Of a DNA stretch of 64,000 bases, positions 1,020 through 15,009 are shown piece by piece. The first letter of the stretch is position 1. Every line of letters starts with the position of its first letter. The notes beneath the pieces are model-generated. The model saw nothing but the letters and a program-made list of their open reading frames with translations. It was not told where the DNA came from and ran no database searches. The DNA comes from Chitinophaga pinensis. Lineage in GTDB: Bacteria; Bacteroidota; Bacteroidia; Chitinophagales; Chitinophagaceae. The position numbers were made by a program, and so were the translations under genes. Where the stretch lies: the NCBI GenBank assembly GCA_943372605.1, contig CALRZI010000015.1, positions 2,432 through 66,431 on the forward strand, read 5' to 3'.

Positions 1020-3128
1020 TTATGCGAACTGTATATCATCTACAAACGGCATTCGTCTGAAACGCTTTCCTGTTGCAGCGAACAGGGCATTGGCCAATGC
1101 TGGTGCAATTGGCGGCAATCCTGGTTCACCCAATCCAGTCGGGTTTTCTTCAGAAGGCACGAATGCTACTTCCACATCCAATGGTGTACTGCGCATTTTC
1201 ACAAAATTATAAGAGCCGAAATTGGTTTGTACCGCCGCACCATCTTTGAAAGTAAGTTTGGTAAACATAGCATGACCAAGTCCATCTACTACCGCACCCT
1301 GCACCTGATTTTCTGCGCCACTCAGGTTCACTACTTTTCCGCAATGCACGGCGCAATACACTTTGGTTATTTTGGGCTTGCCATTTTCCATCTTTAATTC
1401 TACCACCTGTGCCACATAACTATTAAAGGAAAACCATGTTGAAAATCCACGGTATGTATTGGGTGATGACTTACCCCAGTTACTGATTTTAGCAACCAGT
1501 TCTATAACACTGATAAATTTATCAGCATCATAGGCCAACCTGCCGACGGGTTGTTCCTTGGCTTTCTTCAGTAACTCAAGACGTAATGCTACCGGATCTT
1601 TTTTCAGTTCTGTTGCCACTTCATCCATAAAACATTCATTGGCAAATGCCTGCACATTATGTGTTGGTGCGCGCCATGGGCCAGTGGGAATATTGGTGGG
1701 TAAGCTATGGCTTTCTATGCGCAGGTTTTTCAAAGCACCGGCCGGATAGGTATCCGGACTTCTTCCATTACTTAAACAGACAAATGACTGGTGCCAGGCT
1801 TCCAGGTTACCATCTTTGATCGCTGCTTTAAAACGAAACATTCCGCTGGCACGATAAAAATCATTCTGCATATCATCTTCACGCGTCCACTGCACCTGTA
1901 CCGGACATTGTGCTGCCTGAGAAATCAATGCTGCTTCTATTCCGTTATCGGGTCTTAATTTTCTTCCGAATCCTCCACCCTGTCTGGGTAATCCGAGGGT
2001 TACATTTGCCACAGGAATATTCAGTTCTCTTGCTACTGATGTTACTAGGTTTTGCGGCACTTGTGTTGGTCCATACAACTCAGCTTTTCCGTCGCGTACA
2101 TCTGCATAAAAATTCAGGGGTTCCATTTGTGCGTGAGATAATACAGGCACTTCATAATATACATCGAGCAGTTTGGTTGCTGCTGACATCGCCGCGTCTA
2201 CATCTCCATCATTACGATTGGGTGTGGCTGCCGGTTTACTCAATAATTCCTTAAATACTTTTTTATGATCGGTGGTACTTTCCAACTTCGATGCATCTTC
2301 CCAATTTATTTTCAATGCCGCTCTTCCTTTGATGGCGGACCATGTTGATGTTGCAAGAACAGCTACGCTGCTTTTAACCTGTACTACTTTTTTCACACCT
2401 GTTACTTTCAAAGCAGCGCTATCATCAAACGACTGTAATTTTTTCCCATGTGCCGGTGGTCGTGCCACTACTGCGAATAACATTCCTTCTCTTCTTGTAT
2501 CAATTCCAAAAAGTGGTTTTCCTGTTACAATAGCTTGCGCATCTACATCTTTTACACGTGTTCCGATGATTGTAAACTCTTTCGGATCTTTTAAAGGAAT
2601 ATTGGCAGGCACAGGCATGGAAGCCGCTTTGGTAGCCAATTCACCGAAAGCTATTTTCTTACCAGATGTTTTATTCACTACAAAACCATTCTCTGCATAA
2701 CAGTCGGCAGCAGCAACACCCCAGGTATCGGCTGCTGCTGCAATTAATAATACCCTCGCCGTAGCACCTGCTTGTCGGAGCGGTGTATAACGACTCCTGA
2801 TAGCACCACTTCCGCCAGTTGTCTGGCTGCCATATTTAGCATCCAATGGTGCAATTTCTACCTGAATTTTTTTCCAATCCACATTCATTTCTTCTGCAAT
2901 CAGCATTACCAATGATGTTTTTACGCCCTGACCAATTTCAGGATTGGGCGACATCATTGTAATAGTGCCATCAGGTGAAATTTTGATATAGGCATTTGGT
3001 GAAAATGGCGTTCCATCTAATTCCTGTTTTTCATCATTACCCAATGTTGAAAAACCGACCAGCATACCACCACCGGCAATCATGCTGACCCTCAGAAAGT
3101 TTCTTCTTGATACTGATGGTGTACTCAT
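1020..3128 (-). CDS. Xanthine oxidase family molybdopterin-binding subunit (IorB-like), paralog 1
   Basis: N-terminal SRRNFL twin-arginine motif; EIGQG, TGGS, GGGFGRK and C-terminal GLGEPGLPP..ALANA motifs. Confidence 0.92.
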   Translation of the reverse strand: MSTPSVSRRNFLRVSMIAGGGMLVGFSTLGNDEKQELDGTPFSPNAYIKISPDGTITMMSPNPEIGQGVKTSLVMLIAEEMNVDWKKIQVEIAPLDAKYGSQTTGGSGAIRSRYTPLRQAGATARVLLIAAAADTWGVAAADCYAENGFVVNKTSGKKIAFGELATKAASMPVPANIPLKDPKEFTIIGTRVKDVDAQAIVTGKPLFGIDTRREGMLFAVVARPPAHGKKLQSFDDSAALKVTGVKKVVQVKSSVAVLATSTWSAIKGRAALKINWEDASKLESTTDHKKVFKELLSKPAATPNRNDGDVDAAMSAATKLLDVYYEVPVLSHAQMEPLNFYADVRDGKAELYGPTQVPQNLVTSVARELNIPVANVTLGLPRQGGGFGRKLRPDNGIEAALISQAAQCPVQVQWTREDDMQNDFYRASGMFRFKAAIKDGNLEAWHQSFVCLSNGRSPDTYPAGALKNLRIESHSLPTNIPTGPWRAPTHNVQAFANECFMDEVATELKKDPVALRLELLKKAKEQPVGRLAYDADKFISVIELVAKISNWGKSSPNTYRGFSTWFSFNSYVAQVVELKMENGKPKITKVYCAVHCGKVVNLSGAENQVQGAVVDGLGHAMFTKLTFKDGAAVQTNFGSYNFVKMRSTPLDVEVAFVPSEENPTGLGEPGLPPIAPALANALFAATGKRFRRMPFVDDIQFA

Positions 3129-3589
3129 AATTTACCTCCTTTTGATACAGCCATGTGAATGGCTTTGCGTATACGTACATTGGTTCCGCAACGGCAGATA
3201 TTGGTAATAGTAGAATCAATTTCTTCGTCGGTTGGCTTGGGATTTTTTTTCAGCAATGCTACTGCAGCCATGATCTGACCAGACTGGCAATACCCGCACT
3301 GGGCCACATCCATCTCTACCCACGCCTGCTGTACCGGATGATCTCCTTTCTCACTCAACCCTTCAATCGTAACAACTTTTCCGGCACCAACACCTGCAAC
3401 AGGAAACTGGCAGGAACGTATAGGGTTACCATTGTAATGTATGGTGCAGGCACCACACTGTGCCACACCACAACCATATTTAGTTCCAACAAGGTTTAAC
3501 TGATCGCGTAATACCCAAAGCAATGGTGTATCGGCATCTGCTTCTACTGATACCTGTTTGTTGTTGACGGTAAAATTATACTTCGGCAT
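3125..3589 (-). CDS. (2Fe-2S)-binding small subunit (IorA-like), paralog 1
   Basis: [25 protein letters not shown] and CRCGT Fe-S motifs; stop overlaps the IorB start. Confidence 0.93.
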   Translation of the reverse strand: MPKYNFTVNNKQVSVEADADTPLLWVLRDQLNLVGTKYGCGVAQCGACTIHYNGNPIRSCQFPVAGVGAGKVVTIEGLSEKGDHPVQQAWVEMDVAQCGYCQSGQIMAAVALLKKNPKPTDEEIDSTITNICRCGTNVRIRKAIHMAVSKGGKL

Positions 3590-3727
3590 ATGGAAGATGG
3601 ATTTATTAGTGAATGGTAAACTAAGTATTATCTCAGAGAAAGAAAAGCCAAATGACTAAAAATCGGTCAATGGCTTTTGAAAACAAGTCATCGGTAAAAC
3701 TAAAGAGCCTGTTACTATAATCTGTCA

Positions 3728-4639
3728 TCATATATGACGACCACCTTTCATTACATTAAACACATGTAATATATGTGGAAACAATGCGTCCAACGTTTCA
3801 TTTACTCCTTTTACGGAACCAGGCAGTGTAATAACAAGGCTGTTTTTTACATACCCTGCAACACCTCTTGATAACATGGCATATGGTGTACGCTGCTGCC
3901 CATAGTTTCTAGCTGTTTCCATAATACCGGGAACTATCCTGTCCAGTAAAGGTTCAATAGCATCGGGTGTTACATCTCTGGGCGACAAGCCGGTTCCGCC
4001 AGTAAACAATATGAGGTTATACCCTTGTTCTGCATATGACTTTATCTGATCCTGTATATGTTGTATATCGTCTGGAATGATCTTGTAAGCTGAAACTTTC
4101 ACACCCAGTTGCTCCATTTTTTGCACAATGGTTTTGCCGGAAACATCTTCTTTTTCTCCGGCCGAGACTGTATCGGAACAAACAATCACAGCACAGTTTA
4201 ATGCGCTCGCATCAACAGGTAAATGGTCTGACTTACCTCCTTTCTTCTGTTCCAGCCTGATATTTGATATTTCTACACCTTTATCCAATGGCTTCAGCAT
4301 ATCGTACATGGTTAGTGCAGTTACCGAAGCCCCATGCATGGCTTCCACTTCAACACCGGTCTTATAAATAGTATGTACTTCTACTGTAATGAGAATACTG
4401 AGTCCGGTTATTTCGTGTTTAATCGCTGCATATTCTATAGGCAGAGGATGACAATCTGGAATTACATCACTGGTTTTTTTGATGGCCAGTAAACCAGCGG
4501 CCCGTGAAAATTCAAATACATCGCCTTTGGGCACTTGTCTGTTACGGATGGCATCAATTGTCTCCTGTTTTGACACAGTTAATGTGGCACTGGCTATTGC
4601 CTGCCGAAGGGTATTTGATTTTGATGTTATATCAACCAT
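3728..4639 (-). CDS. moaCB: Bifunctional MoaC / MogA-MoaB-domain molybdenum cofactor biosynthesis protein
   Basis: MVDIT start, IPDCHPLP and TGVEVEAM (MoaC), then GGTGLSPRDVTP and TLPGS (MogA/MoaB); ORF track starts at 4660, ATG 4639 preferred. Confidence 0.9.
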   Translation of the reverse strand: MVDITSKSNTLRQAIASATLTVSKQETIDAIRNRQVPKGDVFEFSRAAGLLAIKKTSDVIPDCHPLPIEYAAIKHEITGLSILITVEVHTIYKTGVEVEAMHGASVTALTMYDMLKPLDKGVEISNIRLEQKKGGKSDHLPVDASALNCAVIVCSDTVSAGEKEDVSGKTIVQKMEQLGVKVSAYKIIPDDIQHIQDQIKSYAEQGYNLILFTGGTGLSPRDVTPDAIEPLLDRIVPGIMETARNYGQQRTPYAMLSRGVAGYVKNSLVITLPGSVKGVNETLDALFPHILHVFNVMKGGRHI

Positions 4640-4641
4640 AA

Positions 4642-5085
4642 TTATTGATTCATTTTCCACTGATGTGTATTGTCTTCAAACAACTCTGCTCCCCATACAG
4701 GAAGTTCGGCTTTAATTGTTTCTACCAGTTCAGTACAGGCTTCCATAGCGGCTTTGCGATGCGGTGCTGATGTAAACACAAACAAACATATTTCTCCAGC
4801 CTGTACTCTCCCAAGACTGTGGTACACGTGCATACAGGTTAAATTATACTTTTCAAAAATCGCCTCCCTGATCTCATGCATTTTCTGCAATGCCATTTCT
4901 TCATAAGCAGTATATTCTATCGCTGCAACTTTCTTTCCATTGATCTCATCGGCGCGAACCTGTCCTAGAAAAATGCTATGCCCGCCTATTCCTGTTTTGG
5001 AACTGTGCTTTTGAATATCTGCTGCTATAAATGGTGCAGCTATTGCTCCCTGAATAAATATATTTTTTGGCTTCCCCTCTTTCAT
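4642..5085 (-). CDS. moaE: Molybdopterin synthase catalytic subunit
   Basis: IFLGQVR, IEYTAY, HSLGRV..GE, SAPHRKAA, KAELPVW motifs; ATG 5085 follows the moeB stop. Confidence 0.9.
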   Translation of the reverse strand: MKEGKPKNIFIQGAIAAPFIAADIQKHSSKTGIGGHSIFLGQVRADEINGKKVAAIEYTAYEEMALQKMHEIREAIFEKYNLTCMHVYHSLGRVQAGEICLFVFTSAPHRKAAMEACTELVETIKAELPVWGAELFEDNTHQWKMNQ

Positions 5086-5086
5086 A

Positions 5087-6211
5087 TCATTTCTTTTGAC
5101 GAAAATTTTTCCAGGCAACAATACCGCCCTGTAAGCTATACATGGTTTTAGCATTACCCAACTGTTCAGATAATAACTGTACAGCCTGCTGACTTCTTTT
5201 ACCTGACTGACAAAATACAACAACTGTATCATTTTTTAGTTGTCCATATTCCGTCTTAATCTTTACCAGTGGTATATTGTGGTGCTGAAATTCATCCACG
5301 ATGGGTGTTTCATGTAATTCTCTTACATCTACCACATCTATATTGTCTTGTTGAATTAACTGATCAAATGCATAGGCATCAATTTCATTTACCGGAACAG
5401 GCGATGTGCAAAGCCATGCATAATCTGTTTTTCTGAATGCTTCTTCCGTTTGCGGTATCAGCAATGCTGTATCTTTTCTTGCTGTAATCCTTAGTGTATA
5501 CAACTGGTTGGTCAGGATATTATATGTAAGCAACTGGTTGATCAATGAAGTGCCAAGACCTGTGATGAGTTTGATGGTTTCACTTGCCTGCATGGAACCA
5601 ATCATTCCGGGTAATACCCCTAGCACACCCGCATCCGCACAATTCAATATTTCATTTTCTTTTGGCGGCTCCGGGAACAGGTCGCGGTAATTAGATGATT
5701 GCTCTTCTTTTTCCAGTGAATAATTAAAAACAGCCACCTGTCCTTCAAATCTTGAAACAGCACCATAAACCAATACTTTCTTCATCAGAACGCAGGCATC
5801 ATTGATCATATACCTTGTAGCAAAATTGTCGGTACCGTCAATAATAATATCAAATGAAGATAAGAGTGTCAGTAAATTTTCAGTAGTAGCATACTCAGGG
5901 AATGATGTGATGGTGATTTCAGGATTTATCTTCTTTAAATGAGTTGCTGCTGTTACTGCTTTGTTTTTTCCAATATCATTGGTACTAAATAACACCTGCC
6001 TGTGCAGATTGTCGAGCGAAACTGTATCCCCATCTACGATACCAATGGTTCCTACACCAGCGGCTGCCAGGTATTGCAAAGCAGGACAGCCCAAGCCTCC
6101 TGCACCGATTACCAATACGCTTGCTGCTATCAGTTGCTGCTGCCCTTTTTCACCAAATCCTGGCAGGATCATCTGGCGCTGGTATCGCTCATATGAACTA
6201 TTGTTTTGCAT
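5087..6211 (-). CDS. moeB: MoeB/ThiF adenylyltransferase fused to a rhodanese domain (MoeZ-like)
   Basis: RYQRQ, GAGGLG, NLHRQ, DGTDNF motifs; C-terminal FCQSGKRS and LQGGI rhodanese; ATG 6211 preferred over track start 6280. Confidence 0.9.
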   Translation of the reverse strand: MQNNSSYERYQRQMILPGFGEKGQQQLIAASVLVIGAGGLGCPALQYLAAAGVGTIGIVDGDTVSLDNLHRQVLFSTNDIGKNKAVTAATHLKKINPEITITSFPEYATTENLLTLLSSFDIIIDGTDNFATRYMINDACVLMKKVLVYGAVSRFEGQVAVFNYSLEKEEQSSNYRDLFPEPPKENEILNCADAGVLGVLPGMIGSMQASETIKLITGLGTSLINQLLTYNILTNQLYTLRITARKDTALLIPQTEEAFRKTDYAWLCTSPVPVNEIDAYAFDQLIQQDNIDVVDVRELHETPIVDEFQHHNIPLVKIKTEYGQLKNDTVVVFCQSGKRSQQAVQLLSEQLGNAKTMYSLQGGIVAWKNFRQKK

Positions 6212-6212
6212 A

Positions 6213-6458
6213 TTATCCTCCTGAAAATGGCGGCAACAAGGCCACAATACTGTTTTCAGATAAAATGGTATTGCCAGCAATCATCTCCTGGTTAACAGCT
6301 ATTACGTATTTCGATTGAGCCAATGCCGGGAATTGTTGATGCAGTTCAGCTATCAATGATGCCGTATCAACACGCCCTTCTACCTCCAATTCTTTTGAAC
6401 CGACTGTTTCTGCTAATTGACCAAATAAAAGAATTTTCATTTTCATTCTATTCAACAC
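6213..6458 (-). CDS. moaD: MoaD/ThiS sulfur carrier
   Basis: 81 aa, IAVNQE and C-terminal LLPPFSGG. Confidence 0.92.
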   Translation of the reverse strand: MLNRMKMKILLFGQLAETVGSKELEVEGRVDTASLIAELHQQFPALAQSKYVIAVNQEMIAGNTILSENSIVALLPPFSGG

Positions 6459-6473
6459 TTGAGACTTTCTTTG

Positions 6474-7220
6474 TTAAGCCGATGTAAATAACAATTTATA
6501 TGCAGCCACCGCTAAAACAAGTGCCAGCACTTTTTTCATTACAGTTTGTCTGAATTTCATAGAGCCAAAATAGGCCCCCGCAATTCCGCCCGCAAATGCA
6601 ACAGCAACATACACAAACATATCGCTGCTGAATTGAATACCATTTGTCAATTGCCCCATCAATCCAGATGCTGAATTTACAAAAATAAACAGGGCACTGA
6701 TGGCTGCTGTTTGTTTTTGATCTGTCCAGTTAAAGAATATCAACAAAGGCGAGAGAATAATTCCACCTCCAATACCAATCATTCCCGACAATAAGCCTAT
6801 CACCCCTCCCATCAGCAAGGCACCTGAAAAATGAGTCGGTTTCTGTTCCTGTGAAGTATTTTTTGTGGGGATCAGTAAACGGATTACAGAAAAGATCAGC
6901 AGCAAGCCCAGTATTTTTTTATAGATCGTTGCATCAATACTAACCAATCCACCTACAAATGCCATGGGTACTGATGCCAATGCCAACGGAAAAAATACTT
7001 TCCATACAAAATGTTTACCCCGATAAAATTGCAGAAAAGCAGTTAGCGATACAAACAGGTTCAATAATAATGCTGTAGGCTTCATTACTGCTGGCGCTAG
7101 GCTGAACAATGCCATTAATGCCAGGTATCCGCTGGCACCACCATGCCCCACTGAGGCATAGAGAAATGCAACTACAAGTAATAAAGTACAAAATAAAAAC
7201 AGGCTATCCATGTACATCAT
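6474..7220 (-). CDS. TauE/SafE (TSUP) family membrane transporter
   Basis: Highly hydrophobic; repeated GHGGA and GIGGGI motifs characteristic of TSUP. Confidence 0.85.
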   Translation of the reverse strand: MMYMDSLFLFCTLLLVVAFLYASVGHGGASGYLALMALFSLAPAVMKPTALLLNLFVSLTAFLQFYRGKHFVWKVFFPLALASVPMAFVGGLVSIDATIYKKILGLLLIFSVIRLLIPTKNTSQEQKPTHFSGALLMGGVIGLLSGMIGIGGGIILSPLLIFFNWTDQKQTAAISALFIFVNSASGLMGQLTNGIQFSSDMFVYVAVAFAGGIAGAYFGSMKFRQTVMKKVLALVLAVAAYKLLFTSA

Positions 7221-8404
7221 TAAACGGGTAAAAGATGAATACTGACCAGCTCTCCTTCTTCACTAACCGTTATATCCTCTCCAATTTCAATTAAACAGTT
7301 GGCCCTTGCAAATGAATGCATCCTGTATGATTCCTGCGCGCCAAGAGGTAATACGGTATGACCATCATACAATCCTTTTAAAAAGTGGGTAAGTCCTGAA
7401 GGCTTTTGATACGATTTAGCCAGTGGCACCTGTTTAACCAACAATCCTTTCTCTCCACGAATCATGTTAGCGATAACAGGCAATACATACATATAAAAAC
7501 AGGTAAGCACAGATGAGGGATTACCCGGCAATCCAAACACCAGCTTCGATTCTTTTGTTCCAAAGAAAAGTGGTTTACCTGGTCTTTGTTTTAGTTTATG
7601 GAACCGTGTAGTGATGCCACATCGTGTTGCTGCTGCTACCACAAAATCATAATCGCCCACACTTACGCCTCCCGTTAATAAAACAAGATCAGTTTGTATT
7701 ATTGCATGTTCCAGTTCATTTATCAGCCTGTCTAATATGTCCGGCACTTGTACCACATTAATCTGTCTGACGCCCATTTGTTTCAAAACAGCCGTTAAAG
7801 CAAATGAATTAGAATCATATACCTGTCCATACGCCAAAGGATGACCGGGTGTTTGTAATTCGTTACCGGTTATGATGATGGTAACAGAAGGGGGTGGAAA
7901 TACACTTACTTCTGCTATACCCATTCCTGCCAGGAAACCAATAGCAGCGGGTGTTAAGATGGTGTTTGCTGACAATGCAAGTTCGCCGGTTTTAATTTCC
8001 GATCCTTTCAAACGCACATTGTTACCCTGTTTCAACTGTTCATCATGAATATGTAACTGGCCATTTACGACATTGGTCTTCTCCTGCATCACAACTGTAT
8101 CAGCACCATTCGGCACTGCAGCACCTGTAAAAATGCGAACTGCTGTTTTAAGACCGATCGTCTGTTCATGATTACTACCGGCAGCCATTTCTCCTTTAAT
8201 CTGCAAAACGGAATTGTGCTGCCAGTCTGCAAAAGAAAAAGCATAACCATCCATTGATGACTGGGAATAAGCAGGTATATCAAGCGGGGCAACTATATCA
8301 GCCGCCAGTCTATAACCAATAGCATCCTGTAGTTTTATATAAACAGGCGGTAAGGTTGTAACATATTGCTGAATTATTTCTCTGGCTTCCGATACGCTGA
8401 TCAT
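7220..8404 (-). CDS. moeA: Molybdopterin molybdenumtransferase (gephyrin-like)
   Basis: SSMDGYA, RIFTGA.VP.GAD.VVMQE, TGNEL, TGGVSVGDYD, GLPGNP motifs. Confidence 0.95.
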   Translation of the reverse strand: MISVSEAREIIQQYVTTLPPVYIKLQDAIGYRLAADIVAPLDIPAYSQSSMDGYAFSFADWQHNSVLQIKGEMAAGSNHEQTIGLKTAVRIFTGAAVPNGADTVVMQEKTNVVNGQLHIHDEQLKQGNNVRLKGSEIKTGELALSANTILTPAAIGFLAGMGIAEVSVFPPPSVTIIITGNELQTPGHPLAYGQVYDSNSFALTAVLKQMGVRQINVVQVPDILDRLINELEHAIIQTDLVLLTGGVSVGDYDFVVAAATRCGITTRFHKLKQRPGKPLFFGTKESKLVFGLPGNPSSVLTCFYMYVLPVIANMIRGEKGLLVKQVPLAKSYQKPSGLTHFLKGLYDGHTVLPLGAQESYRMHSFARANCLIEIGEDITVSEEGELVSIHLLPV

Positions 8405-8432
8405 GGTCTGTCAAAAAATTTTCTAGTATGTA

Positions 8433-9413
8433 TTAGCCACCAATAGTGATCATACTTCTGTTTTGAATAATATCGGCCTGTAACTGTTCATAATCCTGGG
8501 TAAACTGTCCGCCCAATTGCGCTGCTTTTGTTGATATGGATTGATGAATCAGTGGCAATACGGCTTCTCCGTTTCTCAGCGGCGTTAATAAATCAACTTC
8601 ATCTTTTGAAAACAAGCAATTCTTCATTTTGCCATCAGCCGTTAAACGGATGCGGTTACAGTCGCCACAGAAATGAGCGCTCATGGTACTGATTACTGCA
8701 AATGTTCCCTGATGACCCGGTATCATAAATTTCTTGGCAGTATCATTTTTTTCTGCCTGCAACGGAATGAAATCATACTGTTCTGCAACAACAGTTAATA
8801 TTTCTTCCAGTGTAAATACTTTATTGCTTGTCCAGCGGTTACCACTAAAAGGCATGAACTCTATAAAGCGCACATGCAGTGGCAGGTCTTTTGTCCATTC
8901 AATAAAATCAATGATCTCATTGTCATTCACACCACGCATCACCACCACATTCACCTTGGTATGAAACCCATGGGTAATCATGAGTTCAATATTTTTCTGA
9001 ACAATAGTAAACTGGTCTCTTTTTGTGAGCAGTTGAAACTTCTCCGCCTGTAAAGTATCCAAACTGATATTAACAGATTGCACATCAGCTTCCTTTAATA
9101 CTTCTACAAAATCATGCAATCTTGTTCCGTTGGTAGTAAGTGTTAATGTAACCGGTAATTGCGCGAGTCGCCTGATGATTTCTTTCGCATCTTTTCTTAC
9201 CAGCGGCTCACCACCAGTGAGTCTGATTTTGGTTACCCCCTGACTTACAAATAATTTTGCCAGCTCCTCAATTTCATCCACCTGCATCAGTTGTTGTGCC
9301 GAAGCAAAATCATATTCATCTTCTGGCATACAATAAAAGCAACGGAGATTGCAGTTATCGGTCAGTGATATCCGTAAATAATTGTGTATTCTATGATGCT
9401 TGTCTACAATCAT
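8433..9413 (-). CDS. moaA: GTP 3',8-cyclase
   Basis: YLRISLTDNCNLRCFYC radical SAM motif, CGDCNRIR...C second cluster, C-terminal IGG. Confidence 0.96.
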   Translation of the reverse strand: MIVDKHHRIHNYLRISLTDNCNLRCFYCMPEDEYDFASAQQLMQVDEIEELAKLFVSQGVTKIRLTGGEPLVRKDAKEIIRRLAQLPVTLTLTTNGTRLHDFVEVLKEADVQSVNISLDTLQAEKFQLLTKRDQFTIVQKNIELMITHGFHTKVNVVVMRGVNDNEIIDFIEWTKDLPLHVRFIEFMPFSGNRWTSNKVFTLEEILTVVAEQYDFIPLQAEKNDTAKKFMIPGHQGTFAVISTMSAHFCGDCNRIRLTADGKMKNCLFSKDEVDLLTPLRNGEAVLPLIHQSISTKAAQLGGQFTQDYEQLQADIIQNRSMITIGG

Positions 9414-9417
9414 GCTT

Positions 9418-10002
9418 TTATTGTTTAATCAATCGCTCATAATCTTCTTCTGTATCAATATCAATAGCTCCAAGCGGAAAGTTAACCAATCCAACCCGAT
9501 GCTGGTCTTTATTTAACAACTGTCTTGCGCCTTTATCACCTTTCAGCTCCAGTAATTCCGGAAACAAGCTCCGATGAAACAATACGGGAGTTCCTATTGT
9601 ATCGGCGTAGGTACAGGCAATAACCGGTTGATTTGTTTTTTGATGAGCAACTATCATCTCGTTAAACAGATCAACAGAAACATAAGGCTGGTCACACACG
9701 GCAATGATCACTGTTTCTACCCGTGGAAATTCAGTTTGCAATCGTTTAATTCCGGCATGAATAGATGTTGCCATGCCTTCCTGCCAATGATGATTAATAA
9801 CTGTTACAATATTCTCCGTCTCCTTTAAATTATCTTCCTTATTCAACACAACCAGAATAGGTCCTGTTTTCAAATTAGTTGCAGTAGTAATAATGCGCTT
9901 GAGCAATGTCTGGTTATGAAACAACAACTGTTGTTTGGGCTTGCCAAGTCGCTTCGATGCTCCGGCGGCCAATATCAAAACAGCAGTTTCTTTAGTTTGC
10001 AT
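9418..10002 (-). CDS. mocA: Molybdenum cofactor cytidylyltransferase-like NTP transferase
   Basis: ILAAGASKRLG.PKQ, GMATSI, CDQP, GDKGAR, DIDTEEDY motifs; next to xdhC. Confidence 0.8.
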   Translation of the reverse strand: MQTKETAVLILAAGASKRLGKPKQQLLFHNQTLLKRIITTATNLKTGPILVVLNKEDNLKETENIVTVINHHWQEGMATSIHAGIKRLQTEFPRVETVIIAVCDQPYVSVDLFNEMIVAHQKTNQPVIACTYADTIGTPVLFHRSLFPELLELKGDKGARQLLNKDQHRVGLVNFPLGAIDIDTEEDYERLIKQ

Positions 10003-10009
10003 AGCTTAT

Positions 10010-11176
10010 TCAGACAGATGATGAAGATGTTTCAGTTTTAATAACCAAATCGGCGCGACGGTGTATCGCATCTGTCTTTTCACGTAAAGGCAGCGAATTT
10101 GACGATGTAAGTTTCGCCTGTATTTCAGCTATAACAGATATAGCAATCTCTTCTGCTGTTTCAGCGCCAATATTCAACCCTACCGGTCCGTGAATAGCAT
10201 CCTGTTGTTCCTGCGACAATTGAATTCCTTTCTCTGCCAGATCATCCATCATCATACGCATTTTCTTGTGTGGCCCCAATACCCCAATATACCGAACTGC
10301 CTTATTCAATAATGCCTTCAATATCGCCAGATCGTAATTGTAATTGTGCGACATCAACACAAACACTGTCCGGCTGTCTATGATTACATGCTCAAGAATA
10401 TGATCAGCTTTTGCATGTACTACCATGCAGGAGGGCATTGGAAATCTTTCTTTACTGGCATACATGGGTCTGCCATCAATTACGGTTGACTGCCATCCTA
10501 TAATTTCTGCCATTCTCACAAGGGGTATCACATCATTACCGGCTCCTATAATAATAAGTGATACGGGTGGTTGAATAAATTCAGCAAATACAACCAGTTC
10601 TTGCTCCCCATCCACATACTTACTGAATGAAGATTTCTGCTGCTCCATTACCAGTTTTATTTCATGCTGTAGTCTTGTTGTACCCAACACAGGTATCTCA
10701 CCAAACTCCTCTCCTTGTTCTGTAAATAAAAAGCAGGAACCATATTGCGGTGTTCTTTTATCCTGGATGGAAAACAAAGTAAGCAGTACAGATTTTTGTC
10801 TTGATGCGGTAGCTTTCTCTAGCAAATCAACAATAGCTTCTCCTCTTTCACCCTGTAATGGCTCTATCAATACCTGGATCACGCCCTGACAACCCAGTCC
10901 CATTCCAAATTTCGCATCGTCATCATCAGCAGTATCATAGGTTACCAGCATGGGTTTTCCGGAAAGTATTACGTGTAATGCTTTCCGGAAAGCATCTCCT
11001 TCCAAACATCCCCCACTGATAGAACCGGTTAATTCTGCTGCTTCGGTAATCAGCATTCTGGCGCCGGGTCTTCTGTAAGAGGAACCTTCTACATGCACCA
11101 CAGTTGCCAGTGCCGTTTTTCTACCGGCAGCTATTGCTTGCTGGTATGCTTTTATGATCGCAACTATTTCGTGCAT
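10010..11176 (-). CDS. xdhC: XdhC/CoxI family molybdoenzyme maturation factor
   Basis: ALATVV..GSSYRRPGA, GSISGGCLE, GLGCQG, YIGVLG, PVGLNIGAETAEEIA motifs. Confidence 0.92.
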   Translation of the reverse strand: MHEIVAIIKAYQQAIAAGRKTALATVVHVEGSSYRRPGARMLITEAAELTGSISGGCLEGDAFRKALHVILSGKPMLVTYDTADDDDAKFGMGLGCQGVIQVLIEPLQGERGEAIVDLLEKATASRQKSVLLTLFSIQDKRTPQYGSCFLFTEQGEEFGEIPVLGTTRLQHEIKLVMEQQKSSFSKYVDGEQELVVFAEFIQPPVSLIIIGAGNDVIPLVRMAEIIGWQSTVIDGRPMYASKERFPMPSCMVVHAKADHILEHVIIDSRTVFVLMSHNYNYDLAILKALLNKAVRYIGVLGPHKKMRMMMDDLAEKGIQLSQEQQDAIHGPVGLNIGAETAEEIAISVIAEIQAKLTSSNSLPLREKTDAIHRRADLVIKTETSSSSV

Positions 11177-11195
11177 AATAATTTCATATACCCAC

Positions 11196-11603
11196 TTACT
11201 TACGCTGCGCTTTTACCATAGCAGGTGTAATGTTGCCCGGGATTTTATTACCCCAACTGTTTTTGATATAATTCAACACATCAGCAATCTGTTCATCATT
11301 CAGGTATTCCTGTGCGGGCATGGCACCCACATATTTTTTACCATTAATGGTTAAACTGGCTGTTGAACCTTTTAATATTACAATGATAAGATCTTTAGCA
11401 GGTCTTTTCATATAATCAGCTTTTACCAAAGGAGGATTTACTTCCGGCATTCCACTACCATTTTCCATATGGCAGTTCTGACAATAGAGACCATACACTT
11501 CTTTTCCTCTTACGATACTTTTTTGTACGTCACTTTGTATAAAACCGCTACTGATCATTACGATTGAAACGATTACTGTTACTGTCAATATTTTTTTAAT
11601 CAT
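11196..11603 (-). CDS. Exported monoheme class I cytochrome c
   Basis: N-terminal hydrophobic signal, single CQNCH heme motif, distal Met in GAMPA. Confidence 0.9.
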   Translation of the reverse strand: MIKKILTVTVIVSIVMISSGFIQSDVQKSIVRGKEVYGLYCQNCHMENGSGMPEVNPPLVKADYMKRPAKDLIIVILKGSTASLTINGKKYVGAMPAQEYLNDEQIADVLNYIKNSWGNKIPGNITPAMVKAQRK

Positions 11604-11631
11604 ACTTGCAAATTATCAAAAAATAAAAAGA

Positions 11632-13788
11632 TCAAACCTTGGCCAGGTCAAATGGTAATTTCCTGATTCGCTTACCTGTTAAATCAAAAATAGCATTGGT
11701 TAAAGCTGGTGTAAATGGAGGCAAGCCAGGCTCTCCCACACCTCCTGCATCTTCATTATTGTCCATAATAAATACTTCGATCGGTGGAATTTCATTGATT
11801 CTTGGCATTCGGTAAGTAGTAAAATTTTTCTCAACGGTTAAGCCGTCTTTGAAATGAATTTCATGATTTGTTGCAGCACCTAATGCCATTACAATAGAGC
11901 CTTCTACCTGAGCACGAACTGTATCGGAATTCACGTACCAGCCACAATCTATAACAGCCCATACTTTATCAATCTTGATTTTTCCGGTGGCATCTTTAGA
12001 TACTTTCACTACCTGCGCAACACTGCTGCTAAAACACTCCGTAATGGCTACGCCATACCCCTGTTTTGGTTTTCGGGTTTTCCATCCAGATACCTGCTCT
12101 ACCTTTTCTAATAATTTCTGACAACGCTCGTTCTTCAGGTATTGTTTTCTGAAAGCCAATGGATCTTTGCCTGCTGCAATGGCAAGCTCATCCATAAAGC
12201 TCTCATATGCAAAACCATTGGTAGATGCATATACCGAACGCCACCACATGATAGGAATCGGTGTTTCAAATGGAATATCGGAGAAACTAATATTTTTGAT
12301 GCTATCTAAATAGTGTGGCTGAAAACCTTCCAGTACACTATCATTGGGAACATCTTTTTTACTTCCCATCCAATGTCCGATATTCTGACCGCACATCCTA
12401 AATTTAACAGCACTGATCTCCCCATTGTTTACTGCGCCCTCAGCTCTGTAACTAACACCCGGACGAAACGGACCTTGCGTCATATCATCTTCACGCGTCC
12501 AGATAACCTGTACAGGTGCGCCTGCTTCTTTTGAAATTAAACAGGCTTCATGTGTATAATCCAAAAATGCTTTTCTGCCAAAGCCTCCTCCAAGAAATGT
12601 CATATTTACGTGTACATTTTCTTTTTTAATCCCCATCTTCTGACTGATATCGCCTTGTACCCAATCAGGCGCCTGAATAGGACCCCATATTTCAATGGAA
12701 TCTCCTTTATAATGTGCCACACAATTCAATGGCTCCATACAAGCATGCGCCTGGTAAGGTGTTTCATAGACCACATCAAGTTTATTTTTCTGCTGTGCCA
12801 ATACAGGGTCAGGATCACCTTGCTTTTTCGCAGACAGTCCTTCTTTGGACTGCAGGTCGGCTTTCATTTTCTTATATATCTCTTCTGTATTCACATATTC
12901 AAAACCTGCATCATCCCACACCACTTTCAACGCTTTTCTACCCTGCATAGCTGCCCAGGTTGAATCTGCTAACACTGCCACTCCTTCCCGATCGGTATCG
13001 AATACTTTCATGGTAACCTTAAAAACCTTCTTTACCCCGGGTATTTTAAGCGTTGCACTATCATCATATGATTTCACTTTACCTCTTAAACGTGGATTGC
13101 GTTCTACCACGGCGTAAAGCATTCCGGGTATTTTTTTATCTATCCCAAAAACGGCTGTACCATTGGTTTTCAAAGGTGTATCCTGACGGGGAAGTGGCTT
13201 ACGGATAAGTTTATAATCCTCTACTTTTTTGAGTTGCACATTTTTAGGTGCTTCCAGCTTTGAAGCATCTACCACCAATTCTCCATAATGCATTTTCTTT
13301 CCTGAAGGGCGATGCGTTACATGTCCGGCTTCTGCAAAACATTCTGTAGCCTGCACACTCCATTTGGCAGCAGCAGCAGCAACCAGCATTTCGCGTGCAC
13401 TGGCACTTAACTTCAATAAGTTCTTATAAGTACCCCGAACAGTTGAGCTACCACCTGTGATCTGATTGCCATACTTGACTGTATCTCCTTTACCGAAAAT
13501 GATATTGACTTCGTTAAGATTCACTTCCAATTCTTCTGCAATCATTTGCGGTATTGCCTGATAAGCACCCTGTCCCATTTCAGCACGATGACATACAATG
13601 GTTACTTTCCCATTGGTATCAATATGTATCCATGAGTTGAGAGATACTCCATAGTTCTCCGCATCTTCACCTTTGATAATCGTAGATGCTTTTGATTCAC
13701 CGGAAAAGTAAAAACCTAACGTAAGCGCAGTGGCGGATAGTCCGGTAGCTCTAATGAATTTTCTTCTTGATATATCTTTTGGTTCCAT
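11632..13788 (-). CDS. Xanthine oxidase family molybdopterin-binding subunit (IorB-like), paralog 2
   Basis: SRRKFI twin-arginine motif; EMGQG, TGGSS, LGGGFGRK, WWRSV, GVGEPGLPP motifs. Confidence 0.92.
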   Translation of the reverse strand: MEPKDISRRKFIRATGLSATALTLGFYFSGESKASTIIKGEDAENYGVSLNSWIHIDTNGKVTIVCHRAEMGQGAYQAIPQMIAEELEVNLNEVNIIFGKGDTVKYGNQITGGSSTVRGTYKNLLKLSASAREMLVAAAAAKWSVQATECFAEAGHVTHRPSGKKMHYGELVVDASKLEAPKNVQLKKVEDYKLIRKPLPRQDTPLKTNGTAVFGIDKKIPGMLYAVVERNPRLRGKVKSYDDSATLKIPGVKKVFKVTMKVFDTDREGVAVLADSTWAAMQGRKALKVVWDDAGFEYVNTEEIYKKMKADLQSKEGLSAKKQGDPDPVLAQQKNKLDVVYETPYQAHACMEPLNCVAHYKGDSIEIWGPIQAPDWVQGDISQKMGIKKENVHVNMTFLGGGFGRKAFLDYTHEACLISKEAGAPVQVIWTREDDMTQGPFRPGVSYRAEGAVNNGEISAVKFRMCGQNIGHWMGSKKDVPNDSVLEGFQPHYLDSIKNISFSDIPFETPIPIMWWRSVYASTNGFAYESFMDELAIAAGKDPLAFRKQYLKNERCQKLLEKVEQVSGWKTRKPKQGYGVAITECFSSSVAQVVKVSKDATGKIKIDKVWAVIDCGWYVNSDTVRAQVEGSIVMALGAATNHEIHFKDGLTVEKNFTTYRMPRINEIPPIEVFIMDNNEDAGGVGEPGLPPFTPALTNAIFDLTGKRIRKLPFDLAKV

Positions 13789-13823
13789 GATGGATCATTG
13801 TTGTGATTGAAAAATGTTTAATA

Positions 13824-14294
13824 TTATCCTTTGGCCGACATTTTTTTGGATGCTTTTTTTATCGCCTCCCGTATTCTTGGATAAGTTCCACATCTGCAAA
13901 TATGTCCTTGCATTGCGGCATCAATATCCGCATCAGTAGGCGATGCTTTCTTTTGTAACAATGCTACGGCTGCCATGATTTGTCCGGATTGACAATAACC
14001 ACATTGAGGCACTTGTTCCTCAATCCATGCTGTTTGAACAGGATGTGTATTATTAGCTGAAAGTCCTTCAATGGTGGTAATTTTTTTGCTACCAACACCC
14101 GCTACCGGCAACTGGCATGATCTTACTGGTAACCCATCTATATGAATGGTACAGGCCCCACAGGCAGCAACGCCACACCCATATTTGGTGCCGGGTAAAT
14201 CGAGATGATCACGCAAGACCCATAATACCGGGGTAGCCGGATCTACCTCTACTTGTTTTTCCTTTCCGTTCACATGTAGTTTAATAGTAGCCAT
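13824..14294 (-). CDS. (2Fe-2S)-binding small subunit (IorA-like), paralog 2
   Basis: [31 protein letters not shown] motifs. Confidence 0.93.
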
Positions 14295-14447: not shown

Positions 14448-14876
14448 ATGAAAACAATTGACCCGATTATCCTTAAAGACAAAATATCGAATACCTTACT
14501 ATCTACCTTTCTGCTGGCTTTAGCTTTATTGGTGCAAACAAATCATCTGCAGGCACAACAAAAGACACAGATGGTTCGTCTTGCTAAAATTAAAGTTGAC
14601 CCAACCCAACTAGCAGCTTACAATAAAGCCTTGCTTACACAAATGAAAACAGCTATAGCACTTGAACCCGGCGTATTAACTTATTATGCCGTTGCAGATA
14701 AAAAAGATTCGACCAGCATCACCATCCTTGAAATTTATGCCGACACTGCTGCCTACAATAAACATATTCTTACGCCTCATTTCAAGAAATACAAAGACGC
14801 CGTAAAAGACATGGTAAAATCACTCGAACTGGTGGATGTAAATATGATTGGATTTGCTACAAAACCCGACAACTAA
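14448..14876 (+). CDS. Antibiotic biosynthesis monooxygenase (ABM / putative quinol monooxygenase) family protein with signal peptide
   Basis: EPGVLTY, ILEIYAD..AY..H..TPHF..Y ABM pattern after a hydrophobic N-terminus. Confidence 0.8.
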   Translation: MKTIDPIILKDKISNTLLSTFLLALALLVQTNHLQAQQKTQMVRLAKIKVDPTQLAAYNKALLTQMKTAIALEPGVLTYYAVADKKDSTSITILEIYADTAAYNKHILTPHFKKYKDAVKDMVKSLELVDVNMIGFATKPDN

Positions 14877-14977: not shown

Positions 14978-15009
14978 AAAAAAGATGCCGGAACAAAATC
15001 CGGCATCTT
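14978..15009 (-). terminator. Intrinsic terminator of lpdA
   Basis: AAGATGCCGGA / TCCGGCATCTT stem followed by a U tract on the minus strand. Confidence 0.7.

Follow-up and report, generated by a model that had tools for sequence, protein, structure and literature searches.

A Chitinophagaceae operon predicted to encode two exported, flavin-free molybdenum dehydrogenases together with their cofactor supply

The window analyzed in this study is a stretch of 64,000 nucleotides from contig CALRZI010000015.1 of a Chitinophagaceae genome (assembly GCA_943372605.1; 3.9 Mb, 27 contigs, 100% complete). Between positions 1020 and 14294, it carries 14 co-oriented open reading frames (ORFs) that run head to tail on the minus strand. 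The gaps between these genes measure 0 to 35 nt, and the sole larger gap of 138 nt lies between a moaC/moaB fusion gene and iorA2. In order of transcription, the genes encode IorA1, IorB1, a cytochrome c, XdhC, a MocA-like protein, MoaA, MoeA, a TauE/SafE permease, MoaD, a MoeB-rhodanese protein, MoaE, the MoaC/MoaB fusion, IorA2, and IorB2. A preliminary description of this region had claimed two pairs of 2Fe-2S and molybdenum subunits around a full gene set for the molybdenum cofactor (Moco) and its molybdopterin cytosine dinucleotide (MCD) form, and all of these genes are indeed present. We consider it likely that the operon encodes two periplasm-facing, flavin-free molybdenum dehydrogenases of the branch that includes IorAB and membrane-bound aldehyde dehydrogenase (ALDH), along with the full supply of their cofactor.

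The first enzyme pair opens the operon and the second closes it. The small subunit gene iorA1 (13824-14294) encodes a protein for two [2Fe-2S] clusters without a signal peptide (Fer2_2, 5.7e-31, plus Fer2), and iorB1 (11632-13788) encodes the 718-residue molybdopterin subunit, predicted to use MCD and to bear a twin-arginine translocation (Tat) signal (MoCoBD_1 plus MoCoBD_2). Likewise, iorA2 (3125-3589) encodes a second subunit for two [2Fe-2S] clusters (Fer2 and Fer2_2, the latter with 8.3e-29), and iorB2 (1020-3128) encodes a second molybdenum subunit of 702 residues with a putative Tat signal (MoCoBD_1 plus MoCoBD_2). The translations of both small subunits contain the eight cluster cysteines in the expected motifs. 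Every motif quoted in the preliminary description could also be read in the large subunits, where IorB1 carries SRRKFI, TGGSSTVR, WWRSVYAS, and GEPG, and IorB2 carries SRRNFL, TGGSGAIR, WRAPTHN, and GEPG.

The best solved relatives of these proteins come from the membrane-bound ALDH of Gluconobacter oxydans, which bears out the previously noted likeness to the enzymes of acetic acid bacteria. IorA1 and 8gy3_B align over their entire length (1.3e-52), and both large subunits match 8gy3_C over their full length (3.6e-63 for IorB1 and 7e-77 for IorB2), with Escherichia coli PaoC as the next-best solved relative. IorB1 is collinear with 8gy3_C but permuted relative to PaoC, such that its residues 52-138 correspond to PaoC residues 449-533. 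This permuted order agrees with the split Pfam MoCoBD_2 matches, part of which falls at the N terminus. The glutamate of GVGEPG aligns with Glu692 of PaoC, which we take to be the catalytic base, and the GEP residues are present in 83 of the 86 related Bacteroidota IorB ORFs. The TGGS and WR segments also align with segments of PaoC, and presumably they correspond to the Moco-contacting loops that bovine xanthine oxidase has around residue 1078 (PTAAS) and at residues 912-914 (FRGFG). At the residue two positions past the conserved arginine, IorB1 (RSV) is like the Gluconobacter ALDH and IorB2 (RAP) is like PaoC. Judged by these sequence comparisons, both pairs belong to the FAD-less IorAB/membrane-ALDH branch of the xanthine oxidase family. 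However, no NCBIfam equivalog comes near its cutoff for the IorB proteins (the PaoC model NF041671 gives 202 bits against a cutoff of 1180), and therefore no specific enzyme name can be assigned to IorB1 or IorB2.

The two small subunits are 64% identical and the two large subunits are 36% identical (BLASTP). We considered and rejected a recent duplication of the pairs because the large subunits are this divergent and fall in separate deep clades. The same identity value and tree positions make it plausible that the paralogs differ in substrate specificity, as had been proposed.

Directly behind iorB1 lies the gene for a 135-residue, monoheme class I cytochrome c (11196-11603; PF00034, 7.7e-12), which has a hydrophobic N-terminal signal or anchor, one CxxCH motif (CQNCH), and the methionine of a GAMP motif. 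The preliminary description had placed this gene after its paralog 2, and that pair is the first in transcription order (IorA1B1). Among proteins in the PDB, the best relatives of the cytochrome include the cytochrome domain of a Ralstonia copper nitrite reductase (4.6e-20) and Thermus c552 (1.3e-13). The cytochrome subunit of the Gluconobacter alcohol dehydrogenase is also matched (4e-11), in its third heme domain only (8gy2_B residues 332-430). A monoheme protein with such relatives would be a small electron shuttle rather than a triheme, quinone-reducing ALDH subunit. Because the partner is a 135-residue class I cytochrome, electrons probably pass to an oxidase and not to the quinone pool.

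Homologs of this cytochrome (29-50% identity) adjoin IorAB pairs in many gene orders. Relatives are cited here by handles, in which G numbers denote genomes of one GTDB genus (G000 being the genome that holds the window) and L numbers denote relative loci. A homolog follows IorB in G007, G010, G013, G016, L052, and L091; follows an IorB2 ortholog in L130 and L131; precedes IorA2 in L132; and lies between iorA and iorB in L133. Thus, the same cytochrome family is found beside IorB1-type and IorB2-type pairs (L018, L019, L052, L103, L105, and L129-L133), and the best-scoring homologs within the genus are those adjacent to Ior genes. These recurrent adjacencies are our main argument that the operon cytochrome would be the electron acceptor, and that its single copy could serve both enzymes.

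The genes between the two pairs would make and insert the cofactor. The products of xdhC (10010-11176; XdhC_CoxI plus XdhC_C) and the mocA-like gene (9418-10002; NTP_transf_3, 1.1e-35) are predicted to be a Moco insertion and maturation chaperone and a molybdenum cofactor cytidylyltransferase, respectively. These genes are followed by moaA (8433-9413; Radical_SAM plus Mob_synth_C) for the radical SAM enzyme of the first Moco step, moeA (7220-8404; MoeA_N, MoCF_biosynth, and MoeA_C) for molybdenum insertion, and a gene for a TauE/SafE (TSUP) permease (6474-7220; PF01925, 5.8e-34). Molybdopterin (MPT) synthase is represented by its small subunit gene moaD (6213-6458; ThiS family, 5.5e-15) and its large subunit gene moaE (4642-5085; MoaE, 7.9e-30), and between these lies moeB with a C-terminal rhodanese domain (5087-6211; ThiF, 5.2e-81, plus Rhodanese), encoding the MoaD adenylyl/sulfur transferase. 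The moaC/moaB fusion (3728-4660) combines cyclic pyranopterin monophosphate synthase with MPT adenylyltransferase (NF002947, 407 bits against a cutoff of 285).

Two of these reading frames required adjustment. The mechanically called ORFs for moeB (5087-6280) and moaE (4642-5232) are over-extended, running 68 and 146 nt into the genes upstream. Translation probably begins at ATG 6211 for moeB, which is preceded by AGGAGG, and at ATG 5085 for moaE, which yields a protein of 147 residues as in its homologs. These starts abolish both overlaps and fit the adjoining stop codons and the lengths of homologs.

The presence of a MocA-like cytidylyltransferase and XdhC in the operon points indirectly to MCD as the predicted cofactor. 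The MocA-like protein scores 145 bits with the MocA/YgfJ model (TIGR03310) versus 43 bits with the MobA model, both under their cutoffs, and XdhC matches an XdhC-related aldehyde oxidoreductase maturation factor (NF045664, 1.7e-59), also under the cutoff. The TSUP permease is a candidate non-ABC molybdate importer because its gene is likewise flanked by moeA and moaD at 18 listed loci of relatives (including 11 from beyond the Sediminibacterium clade), because no ModA was found in the genome, and because a rice protein annotated as TauE has been shown to transport molybdenum (PMC12227400).

The remainder of the genome agrees with the earlier claim of a self-contained cluster. IorB1 and IorB2 are its only PF02738 proteins, and moaA is present as a single copy, the one in the cluster. 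The FAD_binding_5 (PF00941) and CO_deh_flav_C (PF03450) domains were not found anywhere in this 100%-complete genome, whereas control genomes were positive, and the claim that no flavoprotein subunit is encoded thus extends to the whole assembly. Sulfite-oxidase and MOSC families were likewise not found in the genome. The only other molybdopterin-like match, a weak hit to PF00384, is ActB of alternative complex III (6btm_B, 6.3e-213), a protein not known to carry Moco. Genes for TatA and TatC are present, and two heme-copper oxidases are encoded on contig 2, so an aerobic chain able to oxidize cytochrome c is on hand. Given the single moaA, the presence of Tat components and oxidases, and the lack of any FAD subunit, other Moco enzyme, or ModA among the genes found, we regard the cluster as self-contained. 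The entire Moco pathway appears to serve only IorA1B1 and IorA2B2.

Export was predicted from the N termini of the large subunits, both of which read S-R-R-x-F-[IL] followed by a hydrophobic stretch. With the Tat signal model TIGR01409 (cutoff 16.7), IorB1 scores 20.5 bits and IorB2 scores 15.9 bits, slightly under the cutoff, and the Pfam TAT_signal model gives both proteins approximately 18 bits, under its gathering cutoff. An arginine pair within the first 45 residues is found in 83 of 86 Bacteroidota IorB ORFs, and the exceptions are truncated or over-called. This outcome is in keeping with the export proposed in the preliminary description, and both enzymes are predicted to reside in the periplasm. 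The small subunits have neither a signal nor an N-terminal extension, and thus they would leave the cytoplasm as passengers of the large subunits, as in the 8GY3-type layout. The cytochrome begins with a lysine-rich segment followed by 17 hydrophobic residues, which could act as a Sec signal or anchor the protein in the membrane.

A strong hairpin on the minus strand past the iorB2 stop codon (947-1009) has a predicted folding energy of -36.5 kcal/mol (z -9.25, with 0 of 200 shuffled sequences as stable), and it probably marks the operon end. A terminator-like hairpin also occurs at 14982-15009, behind the upstream lpd gene. Because the 14 genes are framed by these two structures, they look like a single transcription unit, with an additional internal start possible ahead of iorA2. 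Neither the Moco riboswitch nor any other Rfam RNA was detected in or upstream of the operon, and a scan for sigma-70 promoters gave no signal above the shuffled background.

These components can be arranged into a proposed route. MoaA, MoaC, MoaD, MoaE, and MoeB would produce molybdopterin, into which MoaB and MoeA would insert molybdenum, possibly imported as molybdate by the TSUP permease. MocA would then form the cytosine dinucleotide cofactor and XdhC would insert it into the enzymes. The folded IorA-IorB heterodimers would cross the membrane via Tat, with the signal on IorB and the signal-less IorA traveling along. In the periplasm, the molybdenum center would oxidize a carbonyl-type substrate using water, with the conserved glutamate serving as a base. 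This substrate would more likely be an aldehyde or a sugar lactol than an N-heterocycle. Both [2Fe-2S] clusters would relay the two electrons to the monoheme cytochrome c, itself exported via Sec, which would hand them on to a cbb3 or caa3 oxidase.

This layout has characterized counterparts elsewhere. The Gluconobacter oxydans membrane-bound ALDH (AldFGH type, 8GY3) shares the domain order, the signal-less small subunit, the SRRNFL-type signal, the lack of an FAD subunit, and electron exit via a c-type heme. In acetic acid bacteria, the ALDH partner is a large, triheme membrane cytochrome that reduces ubiquinone. The only cytochrome of the cluster, in contrast, is a monoheme protein of 135 residues, which sets the cluster apart from AldFGH proper. 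Moreover, the sequence similarity is distant (phmmer, 217-263 bits), and here the Moco genes lie within the same operon. Another relative, E. coli PaoABC (5G5G/5G5H), is an aldehyde oxidoreductase that uses MCD, reaches the periplasm via Tat, and relies on the same catalytic glutamate. Unlike the pairs studied here, PaoABC has an FAD subunit (PaoB), a different domain order, and no cytochrome, and its Tat signal resides on a 60-residue N-terminal extension of the iron-sulfur subunit PaoA, such that the alignment with IorA1 begins at PaoA residue 63. The cluster contains neither a PaoB-type FAD subunit nor a Tat signal on its iron-sulfur subunits.

Further analogs, compared here by their published descriptions, are the Pseudomonas simiae deoxyribose dehydrogenase (PS417_10890/10885 with the cytochrome c PS417_10880) and the Pseudomonas putida vanillin dehydrogenase (PP_3621-3623). 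Each of these systems pairs an iorA-like gene with an iorB-like gene whose product bears a Tat motif, and adds a cytochrome c gene; both require Moco genes, and periplasmic oxidation has been proposed for them (PMC6365646). They share with our cluster the three-gene set and the Tat motif on IorB, but they belong to Proteobacteria, act on known substrates, and have scattered Moco genes. The name-giving IorAB of Brevundimonas diminuta 7, whose name is lent to the homologs by automatic annotation, is also an FAD-less, two-subunit enzyme with molybdenum and two [2Fe-2S] clusters. From its description, it differs in its N-heterocyclic substrate and in having no cytochrome c gene near iorB (PMC6365646). 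For the FAD-less, two-subunit NdhAB of Agrobacterium tumefaciens S33, an adjacently encoded small periplasmic carrier is the expected acceptor (PMC5500553), but this carrier is the copper protein pseudoazurin, and the genes lie in a nicotine catabolic island. The architecture is therefore already known from Proteobacteria, and the cluster represents a variation in packaging rather than a new mechanism. Its specific features are the small monoheme partner, the two deep paralogs joined in one operon with a complete Moco/MCD pathway, the TSUP permease in the place of ModABC, and the lack of any other Moco enzyme in the genome.

In approximately 10 other Sediminibacterium genomes, the 14 genes occur in this order with the lpd gene again upstream, and IorB1 of Sediminibacterium goheungense DSM 28323 is 95% identical to that of the window. 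This recurrence indicates that the arrangement is real, not due to chance, and under selection. An origin as a horizontally acquired island was considered and rejected, as there is no G+C anomaly relative to the flanks and the same lpd gene flanks the cluster across Sediminibacterium. The Ior/Moco cluster takes at least four forms within this one GTDB genus (G007, G010, G013, G016, and G017). In these, IorB is 40-72% identical to the window protein, different types of cytochrome are encoded, and only some forms include the second pair. The coexistence of several versions in one genus indicates that modules have been exchanged repeatedly, and the modules are also shuffled in other Chitinophagaceae.

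IorB1 has thousands of homologs, and its orthologs of approximately 70% identity are spread widely through Bacteroidota (Mucilaginibacter, Dyadobacter, Spirosoma, Emticicia, Terrimonas, Flavitalea, Chryseolinea, and Saprospiraceae). In most of these orthologs (25 loci, namely L017:16449-17081 on the minus strand plus 24 more), iorA and iorB flank a gene that stands in place of the monoheme cytochrome gene; its product has 200-270 residues, two CxxCH motifs, and a hydrophobic segment at the N terminus. These diheme loci have no cytochrome gene behind iorB; XdhC and MocA come next, often with the same Moco set including TauE. The diheme protein gave no solved relative and only sub-threshold Pfam matches. 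Of the 301 Bacteroidota genomes that were sampled, 53 encode IorB-type proteins (E <= 1e-100). The layout is therefore common in the phylum, its parts are common and modular, and the window holds one permutation of them.

We examined a midpoint-rooted FastTree phylogeny of 80 IorB proteins, restricted to Bacteroidota loci. IorB1 is placed in a clade of 35 with full support, within which the Sediminibacterium group with its monoheme cytochrome is sister to 28 rows comprising 24 diheme loci and 4 incomplete loci where no such gene was seen. A monoheme row (L052) is basal in this clade, and the layout with a monoheme cytochrome downstream also occurs in the sister clade (L018 and L019). For this reason, a cytochrome swap in Sediminibacterium cannot be asserted, and it may instead be the diheme layout that is derived. 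IorB2 sits on a long branch beside a clade of 29 rows, most of which lack an adjoining cytochrome. It is 83-100% conserved across Sediminibacterium and has orthologs of 54-63% identity in other Chitinophagaceae. These orthologs are the sole enzyme of the Moco cluster in L125 and L128, and elsewhere some adjoin a monoheme cytochrome.

The genes that recur beside related clusters provide a hint regarding the substrate. Apart from Moco genes, they include AraC regulators (12 loci), aldo/keto reductases (AKRs; 10 loci), short-chain dehydrogenases/reductases (SDRs), and DUF4440/SnoaL-like proteins with signal peptides (8 loci). Three of the 10 neighboring AKRs bear twin-arginine signals, and one of these three lies directly upstream of iorA1 in a Sediminibacterium metagenome-assembled genome. 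These neighbors, the ALDH-like best structure, and the precedent of the Pseudomonas deoxyribose and vanillin dehydrogenases weakly favor aldehydes or lactols over N-heterocycles as substrates.

The most serious competing view, which we judge rather unlikely, holds that the enzymes are strict N-heterocycle hydroxylases in the manner of IorAB, NicAB, and NdhAB, and that they start the breakdown of pterins, purines, or compounds of the pyridine or quinoline type. Homologs carry the source annotation isoquinoline 1-oxidoreductase, although such annotations are automatic, and FAD-less two-subunit relatives do hydroxylate nicotine, nicotinate, and isoquinoline (PMC5500553). In addition, a classical xanthine dehydrogenase was not found in the genome. 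However, no ring-cleavage, amidase, or heterocycle-pathway genes adjoin the cluster here, nor do any recur among the neighbors in approximately 100 related loci, where AKR, AraC, SDR, and DUF4440 genes are found instead. The best solved relative is an ALDH, and the level of conservation between classes of Bacteroidota (approximately 70% identity) would fit a common substrate better than a niche xenobiotic. It is far less probable that one of the pairs is a redundant or decaying duplicate without a distinct function. IorA2B2 would be the most likely candidate, given its place at the operon end past the 138-nt gap, its lack of a partner cytochrome, and its absence from the relative G017, but the iorB2 frame is intact and retains the Tat motif, the Moco segments, and the catalytic glutamate. 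Its conservation across Sediminibacterium, its deep separate clade, and its orthologs that at times are the only enzyme of a Moco cluster also speak against decay. Least credible of all is a cytoplasmic location with incidental arginine pairs. The sub-cutoff Tat scores would permit it, yet the pair and its hydrophobic stretch are kept in nearly all relatives, the aligned stretch in the large subunit of the periplasmic ALDH is its signal region, and a partner cytochrome c must mature outside the cytoplasm.

A separate question is whether the operon cytochrome is an obligate acceptor. Electrons might instead go to another small cytochrome c, directly to alternative complex III or an oxidase, to menaquinone, or to O2, with the cytochrome acting as a general respiratory carrier. 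Another acceptor is possible because a cytochrome adjoins only a minority of the IorAB pairs in the phylum, and IorA2B2 has none of its own. Furthermore, IorB1 orthologs elsewhere use a different, diheme cytochrome. A second small cytochrome c, 43% identical to that of the operon, is encoded elsewhere in the genome (G000 contig C6:200683-201045), and similar small cytochromes occur away from Ior genes and in members of the genus without IorB, indicating that the family is not dedicated to Ior. The C6 protein, or a cytochrome c domain observed within a 503-residue ORF (G000 contig C20:48989-49246), could serve IorA2B2 as an alternative acceptor. Nevertheless, we consider this option unlikely, since a cytochrome gene immediately adjoins iorB in many independent gene orders, the homologs in the genus that score best are Ior-adjacent, and there is a proteobacterial precedent (PMC6365646).

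Our preferred reading, in which two exported dehydrogenases share one cytochrome and act on carbonyl-type substrates, must also be weighed against several observations that count against it. Along with the phylum-wide scarcity of adjoining cytochromes, the C6 paralog, and the non-Ior relatives of the cytochrome, these include the IorB2 Tat signal that falls slightly short of the model cutoffs and the MocA and XdhC matches that do not reach the NCBIfam equivalog cutoffs. The window itself holds no catabolic, AKR, or AraC neighbor, and the substrate hint comes from very common gene families in relatives. Our literature search found no paper and no experimental data on IorAB-type enzymes of any Bacteroidota member, and two papers on Bacteroidota fitness or GapMind make no mention of molybdenum.

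A broader proposal, which we offer only tentatively, is that the IorB1 clade constitutes a Bacteroidota-wide periplasmic respiratory dehydrogenase and that the two IorAB enzymes are the sole reason this cell keeps molybdenum metabolism. The genes would then form a "Moco island" with a TSUP molybdate importer and interchangeable dedicated cytochromes (monoheme here and diheme elsewhere), oxidizing an abundant periplasmic carbonyl such as the sugar lactols or aldehydes released from polymer degradation. Although the finding mainly carries known biology into an unstudied phylum, the organism offers a compact model with two exported enzymes, one cytochrome, one full cofactor pathway, and no Moco client elsewhere in its genome. 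A molybdenum-dependent phenotype of any kind should map to these 14 genes. Such a model would permit a test of the TSUP permease as a substitute for ModABC, and it would ease substrate assignment for two large, uncharacterized Bacteroidota clades that are labeled "isoquinoline 1-oxidoreductase" by default.

A divergent gene on the plus strand next to iorA1 (14448-14876) encodes a protein with an N-terminal signal peptide and an ABM domain (1.6e-11) that is possibly associated with the operon. It occupies the same position in the Sediminibacterium loci L020 and L029, and a homolog of 40% identity sits inside the Ior operon of L129, between iorA and iorB.

Additional arrangements were observed among the relatives. 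AKRs with Tat signals (for example, RRNFIK and RRNFLK) directly adjoin Ior clusters at L024:8131-9255, L037:5073-6293, and L097:4873-5979; genes for an AraC regulator and for a DUF4440 protein with a signal peptide often accompany them. If exported, an AKR would require a tightly bound nicotinamide cofactor. Finally, the 224-kb Chondrinema litorale plasmid NZ_CP111052.1 carries two divergent IorAB pairs at 123625-130198 (L136) with no adjoining cytochrome gene. One of the large subunits is 62% identical to IorB2, and the flanks hold SusC/SusD polysaccharide loci, glycoside hydrolases, and transposases.

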